Virus record (IMG/VR): IMGVR_UViG_2526164602_000022
Coordinates: 1 to 13,698 of that record
Reading direction: 5' to 3' (one strand)
DNA: 13,698 nt
DNA from: a virus
Taxonomy: Duplodnaviria; Heunggongvirae; Uroviricota; Caudoviricetes
Shown in pieces: positions 12,152-13,698 of the stretch; within the stretch, counting starts at the first letter, position 1, and each line of letters starts with the position of its first letter. Made by a program: the position numbers and the translations under genes. The notes under the pieces are model-generated. The model had not been told where the DNA came from. It saw nothing but the letters and a program-made list of their open reading frames with translations, and made no database searches.

Positions 12152-12253
12152 GTCACGTTCTGACGTCCTGTGTTAAAAACTGATGCATAATGACCGCTGT
12201 GATTTTTCAGATTTCACACAGCAGCACCATATTTGATCGATATTTGCACAATG

Positions 12254-12278
12254 TGAACCGCCCCGGAAATCCTGGAGA
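12254..12278. repeat. left terminal inverted repeat of the IS629-like element
   Basis: tgaaccgccccggaaatcctggaga, the inverse complement of the right end. Confidence 0.7.
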
Positions 12279-12307
12279 CTAAACTCCCTGAGAAAGAGGT
12301 AAACAGG

Positions 12308-12634
12308 ATGACTAAAAATACTCGTTTTTCCCCCGAAGTCCGTCAGCGGGCGATTCGTATGGTTCTGGAAAGTCAGGATGAATATGACTCACAGTGGGCG
12401 GCAATTTGTTCCATTGCCCCAAAGATTGGCTGTACGCCGGAGACTCTGCGTGTCTGGGTTCGCCAGCATGAGCGGGATACCGGGGGCGGTGATGGTGGGC
12501 TCACCAGCGCTGAACGTCAGCGTCTGAAAGAGCTGGAACGTGAAAATCGTGAACTGCGCCGCAGTAACGATATCCTTCGCCAGGCTTCCGCTTATTTTGC
12601 GAAGGCGGAGTTCGACCGCCTCTGGAAAAAATGA
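12308..12634 (+). CDS. IS3-family transposase OrfA (helix-turn-helix / leucine-zipper component, 108 aa)
   Basis: ATG at 12308 preceded by GAGG; the C-terminal heptad pattern [21 protein letters not shown]; ends at TGA 12632-12634, overlapping the OrfB start. Confidence 0.8.
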
Positions 12635-13521
12635 TGCCACTGCTGGATAAGCTGCGTGAGCAGTACGGGGTCGGACCGGTATGCAGCGAACTGCATATTG
12701 CCCCGTCAACGTATTACCATTGTCAGCAACAGCGACATCATCCGGATAAACGCAGTGCCCGTGCGCAGCACGACGACTGGCTGAAGAGAGAGATACAGCG
12801 CGTATACGATGAAAATCATCAGGTGTACGGTGTGCGTAAAGTCTGGCGTCAGTTGTTACGGGAAGGAATCAGGGTGGCCAGATGTACAGTGGCACGTCTC
12901 ATGGCGGTTATGGGACTTGCCGGTGTTCTCCGGGGTAAAAAGGTCCGTACGACCATCAGCCGGAAAGCCGTTGCCGCAGGCGACCGCGTAAACCGTCAGT
13001 TCGTGGCAGAACGACCTGACCAGCTGTGGGTGGCTGATTTTACTTACGTCAGCACATGGCAGGGCTTCGTCTATGTGGCGTTTATCATTGATGTGTTTGC
13101 CGGATACATCGTGGGGTGGCGGGTCTCATCGTCTATGGAAACGACATTCGTGCTGGATGCGCTGGAGCAGGCGTTGTGGGCCCGTCGTCCGTCTGGCACC
13201 ATCCATCACAGCGATAAAGGCTCTCAGTATGTGTCACTGGCCTATACGGAGCGACTAAAAGAAGCCGGATTACTGGCATCAACAGGGAGTACAGGCGACT
13301 CGTATGACAACGCGATGGCTGAGAGCATCAATGGTCTTTACAAAGCGGAGGTAATACACCGTAAGAGCTGGAAAAACCGTGCAGAAGTGGAACTGGCCAC
13401 ACTAACGTGGGTGGACTGGTATAACAATCGACGATTGCTGGGAAGGCTGGGCCATACTCCTCCGGCAGAAGCAGAAAAAGCTTATTATGCTTCCATCGGA
13501 AACGATGATCTGGCAGCCTGA
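12631..13521 (+). CDS. IS3-family transposase OrfB (DDE catalytic domain, 296 aa; probably expressed as an OrfAB fusion by -1 frameshift)
   Basis: DDE-type motifs [17 protein letters not shown] and AESINGLYK; the reading frame is open upstream of its ATG, in the -1 frame relative to OrfA, across the A6 run at 12626-12631. Confidence 0.8.
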
Positions 13522-13538
13522 GTTCACAGATAAAACAC

Positions 13539-13563
13539 TCTCCAGGAAACCCGGGGCGGTTCA
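13539..13563. repeat. right terminal inverted repeat of the IS629-like element
   Basis: tctccaggaaacccggggcggttca. Confidence 0.7.
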
Positions 13564-13698
13564 ATTATCTGTTCTGACGACATCTTCCTGCTGAAACAGC
13601 GCCTGGCCGAACAGGAAGCGCTGATCCACGCCCTGCAGGAAAAGCTGAGCAACCGGGAGCGCGAAATAGACCATCTGCAGGCGCAGCTGGATAAACTC
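13564..13698 (+). pseudogene. 5'-truncated IS66-family transposase fragment (N-terminal leucine-zipper region), cut by the IS629-like right end and running off the window
   Basis: The open frame from 13564 translates to IICSDDIFLLKQRLAEQEALIHALQEKLSNREREIDHLQAQLDKL, which resembles the leucine-zipper N-terminus of IS66-family transposases as I remember them. There is no in-frame ATG/GTG/TTG between the IS end and this segment. Confidence 0.4.

Follow-up and report, generated by a model that had tools for sequence, protein, structure and literature searches.

This analysis concerns a stretch of 13,698 nucleotides (nt) of viral DNA (IMG/VR record IMGVR_UViG_2526164602_000022, positions 1 to 13,698), hereafter the window, which may be an entire short-read contig. 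Near its right end, a complete copy of the insertion sequence (IS) IS629 joins the packaging and head genes of a Shiga toxin 2 (Stx2) prophage of the Sp5/933W type to a fragment of another insertion sequence, ISEc8, and the two ends of IS629 are not flanked by a target duplication. The most economical reading is that homologous recombination between two IS629 copies, one resident in the phage and the other in ISEc8, produced this structure, and we give it a probability of about 0.55. That some genuine IS629-dependent rearrangement took place, either in this way or through the action of the transposase on a single copy, is quite likely. The features on which the argument rests are listed below.

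11345..12151, minus strand: small terminase gene, 268 aa, first gene of the Sp5/933W-type packaging and head module
12152..12253, minus strand: phage remnant upstream of the terminase, 102 bp, collinear with Sakai (locus L003)
12207-12253: 3′ 47 nt of a homologue of ECs_1218, a 67-aa hypothetical gene between terminase and bor
12254..13563, plus strand: complete IS629 (IS1203), IS3 family, 1310 bp, recognized by repeats, identity, domains and pseudoknot
12254-12278: left inverted repeat (IRL) of IS629, 25 nt
12308-12634, plus strand: IS629 orfA, HTH_Tnp_1 match
12589-12705: ALIL frameshift pseudoknot, 121.5 bits (Rfam)
12631-13521, plus strand: IS629 orfB, rve / HTH_21 match
13539-13563: right inverted repeat (IRR) of IS629, 25 nt
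13564..13571, plus strand: junction bases ATTATCTG, where canonical ISEc8 has GACATCTC (four deviating positions)
13567..13698, plus strand: 5′ fragment of tnpC of ISEc8 (IS66 family), from codon 4 on, in frame, without start codon, 131/132 nt

An intact IS629 without target duplication

The element belongs to IS629/IS1203 by its size, by its TG...CA repeats (TGAACC...GGTTCA at the termini), by its orfA/orfB frameshift and by its near-identity to reference copies. In particular, a repeat search returned imperfect terminal inverted repeats of 25 nt that are 88% complementary (TGAACCGCCCCGG... and ...CCGGGGCGGTTCA). OrfA matches HTH_Tnp_1 (E=2.4e-12) and OrfB the DDE integrase core rve (E=9.3e-28), while the overlap of the two open reading frames (ORFs) at 12631-12634 is spanned by the ALIL pseudoknot, a structure associated with -1 frameshifting in the IS3 family. 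All 1310 nt are shared with the copies found in five of the loci fetched for comparison (L001, L002, L004, L006 and L059), identical IS629/IS1203 copies reside on O157:H7 and O111:H8 chromosomes, and the copy of Sakai Sp5 labelled 'IS629 transposase OrfA/OrfB' is the same at 1309/1310 positions (99.92%). The element is complete and presumably active. A distance of 102 bp separates it from the start of the small terminase ORF, upstream of which it lies, and it reads away from that ORF. An earlier note, made from the sequence of the window alone, had described a complete 1310-bp IS with intact inverted repeats about 100 bp upstream of the small terminase start and in the opposite orientation, and this description is borne out by the measured distance and by the 25-nt repeats.

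The same note had found no direct repeat in the bases bordering the element, and this observation also stands. The flanks read gcacaatg on the left and attatctg on the right (..CACAATG followed by ATTATCTG.. across the element or, with a longer right flank, ...gcacaatg-IS-attatctgttctgacgac...), and no direct repeat of 3-4 bp is present at the IS629 ends even when the boundaries are shifted by 1-2 nt. The yardstick is provided by 17 other distinct full-length IS629-type copies in the loci fetched for comparison: 14 of them carry a perfect duplication of 3-4 bp, two a duplication with one mismatch, and one has none. The two imperfect cases, in PV15-279 (L059 1791-3100, GTC/CTC) and in L029 (2597-3906, CCCC/ACCC), differ in the first base by the right end. 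The copy without duplication lies on the finished chromosome of the O157-type strain 113 (L061 238-1547, ..gatgata-IS-ctgatac..), where it adjoins a restriction endonuclease gene missing its N-terminus; the island region in which it sits also contains ISEc8 and an IS-excision-enhancer-like gene.

Phage DNA on the left, ISEc8 on the right

Judged by sequence identity, the left flank comes from short-tailed Stx2 phages of the Sp5/933W type, of which it is the block from terminase to tail fibre. Indeed, window 1280-12253 has zero mismatches to Sakai Sp5, window 1345-12253 is 100% identical to the O157:H7 Stx2a prophages at L011 and L013, and full-length ORFs run throughout the block. The small terminase protein is identical to that annotated 'terminase' in Sakai Sp5 (ECs_1219) and in other Stx2a phages, where it is encoded upstream of the large terminase and portal genes. 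The identity with phage DNA reaches the very end of IS629: Sakai is collinear with the window to position 17559 of L003, and its native sequence then continues with cggttgtttt. The cut falls inside the 67-codon ECs_1218 gene, so that only its last 47 nt are left. In intact relatives, the region upstream of the terminase holds the ECs_1218 homologue, bor, Rz/Rz1, an antirepressor gene, the endolysin and holin genes, small genes, a nanS-p-like esterase gene, stx2AB, tRNAs and Q. The window breaks the continuous late operon that normally extends from Q and pR' over stx and the lysis genes to the terminase: its 102 bp of phage DNA are followed by IS629 and ISEc8.

The small terminase gene also contains, in its 5′ part, two tandem arrays with 12-nt units, at 11963-12015 (4.4 copies) and 11886-11922 (3.2 copies), the units being GATTTCATGATC and TTTGCACAGTTT; they possibly mark a putative pac-like terminase recognition region or encode a repetitive peptide.

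On the other side, window 13567-13698 matches tnpC of ISEc8 at 131 of 132 nt, as seen in loci L002 and L004, in thousands of E. coli records and in plasmids. Canonical tnpC starts with ATG AAC GAC ATC TCT TCT GAC GAC, and the window reads, in frame, ATT ATC TGT TCT GAC GAC. What is absent at this junction comprises codons 1-3 of tnpC including the ATG, the whole of tnpB and tnpA, and the left end of ISEc8, about 0.87 kb by comparison with L002. There is no in-frame ATG, GTG or TTG from 13534, where the frame opens after the stops in the IS629 end, to the end of the window. Measured against a whole ISEc8, which has a left end, tnpA, tnpB, an entire tnpC, a right end and an 8-bp duplication, the copy is thus incomplete on its 5′ side, and its 3′ part lies beyond the window. 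The earlier note had spoken of an IS66-family transposase frame without a start codon: the missing ATG is confirmed, but the loss is wider, as it extends to the whole 5′ part of ISEc8. Having lost the ATG, tnpA, tnpB and the left end, the remaining piece would be immobile. The check proposed for the two junctions, namely their alignment to related prophages and to ISEc8, gives a consistent picture, with phage DNA up to the IS end on the left and tnpC from codon 4 on the right.

Both junctions are used as IS629 target sites elsewhere

Comparison with other genomes indicates that both junctions of the window are ordinary IS629 target sites, taken from two different loci. As to the phage side, the Stx2a phages Stx2_12E092 and Stx2_1603 (LC616054 and LC616055) match the window across the left junction at 300/300 nt. 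Stx2_12E092 carries an IS629-type element at the identical nucleotide and in the identical orientation, with the duplication ATG and with native phage DNA on its right. This element is 96.4% identical to the IS629 of the window, all 47 differences lying at IS nt 521-1251, and the phage backbone has 50 mismatches to the window in the 2 kb left of the IS. The insertion in LC616054 therefore stands for an independent hit at this nucleotide; at the very least, the window does not descend directly from it. Two further insertions fall close by: an IS629-like one of O121 Stx2a prophages lies 29 bp nearer to the terminase, with the duplication CAG, and strain ECP19-198 has another within the terminase gene, with the duplication GAG. 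The region upstream of the Sp5-type small terminase is therefore a recurrent target of IS629, with four separate insertion events at three distinct sites within about 300 bp, spread over different lineages.

As to ISEc8, an IS629 is nested within this element in O157:H7 strain F8798, in the arrangement ...ATGAACGAC, IS, CGACATCTC, with the duplication CGAC. A further IS629 insertion, established at the sequence level, is found in PV15-279 a few tens of nt upstream of the F8798-type site, and in two more genomes a co-oriented IS629 close upstream of tnpC is indicated by joined BLAST pieces alone. IS629 thus also strikes repeatedly at the first codons of ISEc8 tnpC. The ISEc8 copy that has repeatedly received IS629 (L059 4152-6273 and L061 8423-9768) adjoins a gene annotated as encoding a TOTE conflict system archaeo-eukaryotic primase domain protein, which, we assume, may resemble an IS-excision enhancer gene. 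In practical terms, knowledge of these recurrent sites is useful for reading IS629-based typing and contig breaks in short-read assemblies of enterohaemorrhagic E. coli (EHEC).

The junction is a derived state

A BLAST search of 5,426 complete E. coli genomes found neither IS629 junction of the window, nor does any of these genomes contain window 1-12253 in one piece; the exact junction sequence was likewise not found in species-representative genomes, metagenomes or viral contigs. Close relatives are present among draft assemblies. In particular, the 645-aa hybrid tail fibre protein of the window has exact matches in 18 draft contigs of a protein-indexed collection; GCA_011949865.1 and GCA_012366595.1 are examples of draft genomes with this tail fibre. 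Among the eight of these contigs that were listed, five align to window 1-12253 at 2-4 mismatches, and one more covers 1011-12253 and has 2. These six near-identical relatives all run on past 12253 into native phage DNA (ECs_1218, bor, Rz1), and an IS629 at this site is found in none of the eight. As the closest relatives are uninterrupted at 12253, the IS629 junction is the derived condition in the lineage to which the window belongs.

How the junction may have formed

In the proposed mechanism, an IS629 would have entered, as precedent suggests, the ECs_1218-like gene 102 bp upstream of the small terminase of a Sp5/933W-type Stx2 prophage, with ATG as the expected duplication; a simple insertion at this phage site would read left flank, IS629, ATGCGGTTG.. 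A second copy would have inserted at the very start of tnpC in ISEc8, co-oriented with tnpC. Homologous recombination between the two identical 1.3-kb copies would then yield one hybrid IS629 with the left flank of the phage and the right flank of ISEc8, whereas the reciprocal junction would read ISEc8 tnpB...ATGAACGAC, IS629, ATGCGGTTGTTTTATCC. Since the hybrid keeps one flank from each parent insertion, no target duplication is expected. Were the two copies on one replicon, a direct orientation would lead to a deletion and an inverted one to an inversion. Partners for such an event are plentiful, as O157-type genomes are reported to have about 17-21 copies of IS629 and 9 of ISEc8 (PMC7430833).

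What the window displays agrees with this two-copy recombination in several respects: a hybrid IS without duplication, flanks that come from separate loci, and flanks that are each a legitimate insertion site, with the ATT at the right end as the deviating element. The earlier note had suggested that an IS-mediated deletion or recombination removed the region upstream of the packaging genes. Recombination of this kind is in line with the unrelated flanks, with the missing duplication and with the native DNA found in relatives, but the upstream region may equally have been deleted or moved by an inversion, as the window ends 135 nt beyond IS629. Two donors of a simple deletion were considered and rejected, namely the ISEc8 in stx2A of strain 9000 (L008) and the IS629 beside ISEc8 in the prophage replication region of BB24-1 (L060), as in both the ISEc8 is oppositely oriented relative to the late genes. 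The ISEc8 of strain 9000 (CP018252.2) lies at about 860-3300 of L008, within stx2A of a Stx2a prophage, and has been described (PMC6776261).

Some points weigh against two-copy recombination. The bases by the right IS629 end are ATT and not the GAC or CGAC of a canonical ISEc8 partner, and 13571 is G and not C; in other words, an F8798-type duplication of 3 bp would predict the right flank GACATCTC, while the window has ATTATCTG. Moreover, the window would hold the same product had the transposase made the event within one molecule. Finally, the IS629 is canonical throughout and has no internal mosaic to mark a crossover, although this last point is uninformative, as the variant element known from the same phage site differs only at nt 521-1251 and the IS of the window is canonical.

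The odd bases deserve a closer description. The deviating positions are 13564-13566, with ATT for the expected GAC, and 13571, with G for C. The best ISEc8 alignments all begin at 13567 and have the mismatch at 13571, both in the 5,426 E. coli genomes and in 72,556 plasmids searched by BLAST. A 25-mer including the junction bases was matched exactly nowhere in the species-representative genomes, the JGI metagenomes or IMG/VR, while the canonical ISEc8 25-mer has 33 matches in IMG/VR viral contigs. That ATTATCTG is a natural variant of ISEc8, which would have to read ..ATTATCTGTTCTGAC.., was rejected, as no ISEc8 copy in the searched collections carries these bases. A search for another source of the junction 8-mer in the fetched phage, ISEc8 and island loci and in the flanks of other IS629 copies gave chance occurrences only. 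One speculative idea, to which we attach very little weight, is that ATT is a transposition footprint, that is, the 3-nt spacer or 5′ flap of an IS3-family circle or linear intermediate, brought from a prior donor site and kept instead of new target bases. The idea is raised by the two other IS629 copies (PV15-279 and L029) whose flanks differ in the first base by the right end; if it were true, imperfect duplications would record the origin of an IS copy.

Alternative explanations

IS3-family elements move by a copy-out/paste-in mechanism via a circle, the usual product being a simple new copy with a duplication, and deletions adjacent to the element need special intermediates. An alternative that appears unlikely, though worth retaining, involves one copy: a single resident IS629, in the phage or in ISEc8, would attack the other site on the same molecule through an active tandem or circle-type junction, thereby deleting or inverting the DNA in between and leaving one element with an old flank and a new one. 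This would account for the absent target duplication and for the fact that both junctions lie at nucleotides used elsewhere as IS629 targets, as expected for joints made by a transposase. Deletions adjacent to IS629, with sizes anywhere between a few nt and more than 40 kb, have moreover been reported in O157, according to a passage of PMC9943667 that cites Kusumoto 2011. The ATT and the G, however, are explained no better by this route than by recombination, nothing in the window separates the two, and an adjacent deletion is not the usual outcome for the IS3 family. It is the mismatches that would speak for a break at the right IS629 end, followed by resection and error-prone end joining of the IS-excision-enhancer or microhomology type, which would delete phage DNA up to ISEc8 and leave a scarred junction. 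Four of the eight junction bases indeed mismatch ISEc8, and the first two bases past the IS, AT, are also the first two of the expected phage duplication ATG. A match of two bases, however, is expected by chance in 1 of 16 cases, the published model excises the IS whereas here it is intact and in place, and the endpoint in ISEc8 is the very nucleotide at which IS629 inserted independently in F8798, a coincidence for which random resection would need luck. We consider this origin improbable.

The remaining possibility is that the copy lacking a duplication is absent from the cell, the assembler having linked a simple IS629 insertion in the phage to another in ISEc8 through a collapsed repeat. 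Both junctions look exactly as two simple insertions at known target sites would make them, neither is present in the complete genomes, and every relative that shares the hybrid prophage comes from a short-read draft, as a contig of 11-16 kb or as a segment of a longer one. The window, moreover, ends exactly 127 nt past 13571, the last base that differs from ISEc8, as would a de Bruijn contig at k=127. De Bruijn assemblers, on the other hand, normally break at multi-copy repeats of 1.3 kb, and a contig that crosses IS629 suggests an unbranched path. An artefact would also leave the odd ATT beside IS629 unexplained, and copies of IS629 without duplication do exist in finished genomes, as strain 113 (L061) exemplifies. 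An assembly error is thus a poor candidate, and two-copy recombination is retained as the preferred explanation.

Consequences for the phage block

In lambdoid and Stx phages, late transcription starts at pR', is antiterminated by Q and proceeds by way of stx and the lysis genes to the terminase. Comparison with intact phages indicates that in the window the genes from terminase to tail fibre are separated from the DNA that usually precedes them, with bor, Rz/Rz1, endolysin, holin, stx2 and Q. The terminase transcript of Sp5 was detected by reverse transcription PCR after mitomycin C even with a simple IS629 insertion in stx2 (PMC7430833), so that an insertion of this simple kind ahead of the terminase, as seen in LC616054, might be tolerated. 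Unlike in LC616054, however, the DNA beyond IS629 in the window is not of phage origin. The structural genes and the effector cargo had been suggested to depend on transcription derived from the IS or reading through it. This proposal finds no support, as the IS629 transposase frame is directed away from the terminase and no sigma-70-like promoter was found on either strand of 11900-13698, where 1.7 would be expected by chance. The 11-kb block of packaging, head and tail fibre genes would thus be a transcriptionally orphaned, non-inducible prophage remnant and not part of an inducible Stx phage, and silence is the best assumption for it, barring an inversion that has kept the late region at another place.

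Left end of the block and neighbouring genes

The Sp5-type block has a second recombination joint at its left end, at about 1280-1293, inside the tail fibre gene at 1024-2961. In strain E2863, a lambda-like prophage beside uspF/ompN has a tail-fibre C-terminus and nleG cluster that are 100% identical to window 1-1293, and from about 1280 on the window is identical to Sp5. No complete E. coli genome has the resulting hybrid tail fibre of 645 aa in a single piece. The draft relatives have uspF, ompN and nifJ directly after the nleG genes, an order that implies that the Sp5-type genes usually found after the tail fibre are absent at this locus. The window itself carries an nleG gene.

65-691, minus strand: NleG-family type III effector gene, Pfam T3SS_NleG E=1.8e-46

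It heads a cluster of three nleG genes at the related loci L005, L018 and L021. Genes of this family are usually treated as independently expressed cargo.

Comparison with known systems

The IS629 of the window resembles the known IS629/IS1203 of EHEC in its length, its 25-nt repeats, its orfA/orfB organization and its pseudoknot, but differs in lacking the duplication of 3-4 bp and in having flanks from two loci. As compared to a Sp5/933W-type Stx2a prophage, the terminase subunits, the portal, the N4-gp56-type capsid and the N-terminal part of the tail fibre are identical. At the right, by contrast, IS629 stands in place of bor, the lysis genes, stx2 and Q, and at the left everything from the tail fibre C-terminus onward derives from the other, lambda-like prophage with nleG genes.

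Each junction also has its own counterpart. Stx2_12E092 and Stx2_1603 share with the window the insertion point and orientation (..gcacaatg-IS), whereas in Stx2_12E092 the insertion is a simple one with the duplication ATG and the late region is still contiguous. F8798 has its IS629 in the same orientation and with an identical left boundary within ISEc8 (after ..ATGAACGAC, ..AACGAC-IS), but there the insertion is simply nested, with a CGAC duplication and with tnpA and tnpB on the other side, where the window has phage DNA and, in place of the duplicated bases, ATT.

As for the event as a whole, IS629-driven prophage decay is an already known, routine phenomenon in EHEC. For O157, PMC9943667, citing Ooka 2009 and Kusumoto 2011, describes IS629-adjacent deletions of a few nt up to more than 40 kb alongside the IS-excision enhancer. 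The significance of the window beyond its annotation is thus slight, as it adds another case of IS629 breaking a Stx-type prophage in an EHEC-like genome. As in the deletions and rearrangements of O157, for example in strain 113, an intact IS629 without duplication abuts a truncated gene within prophage or island DNA rich in insertion sequences; the window differs in its pair of junctions, which is found in 0 of the 5,426 complete E. coli genomes, and in the three bases at the right end that mismatch the target.

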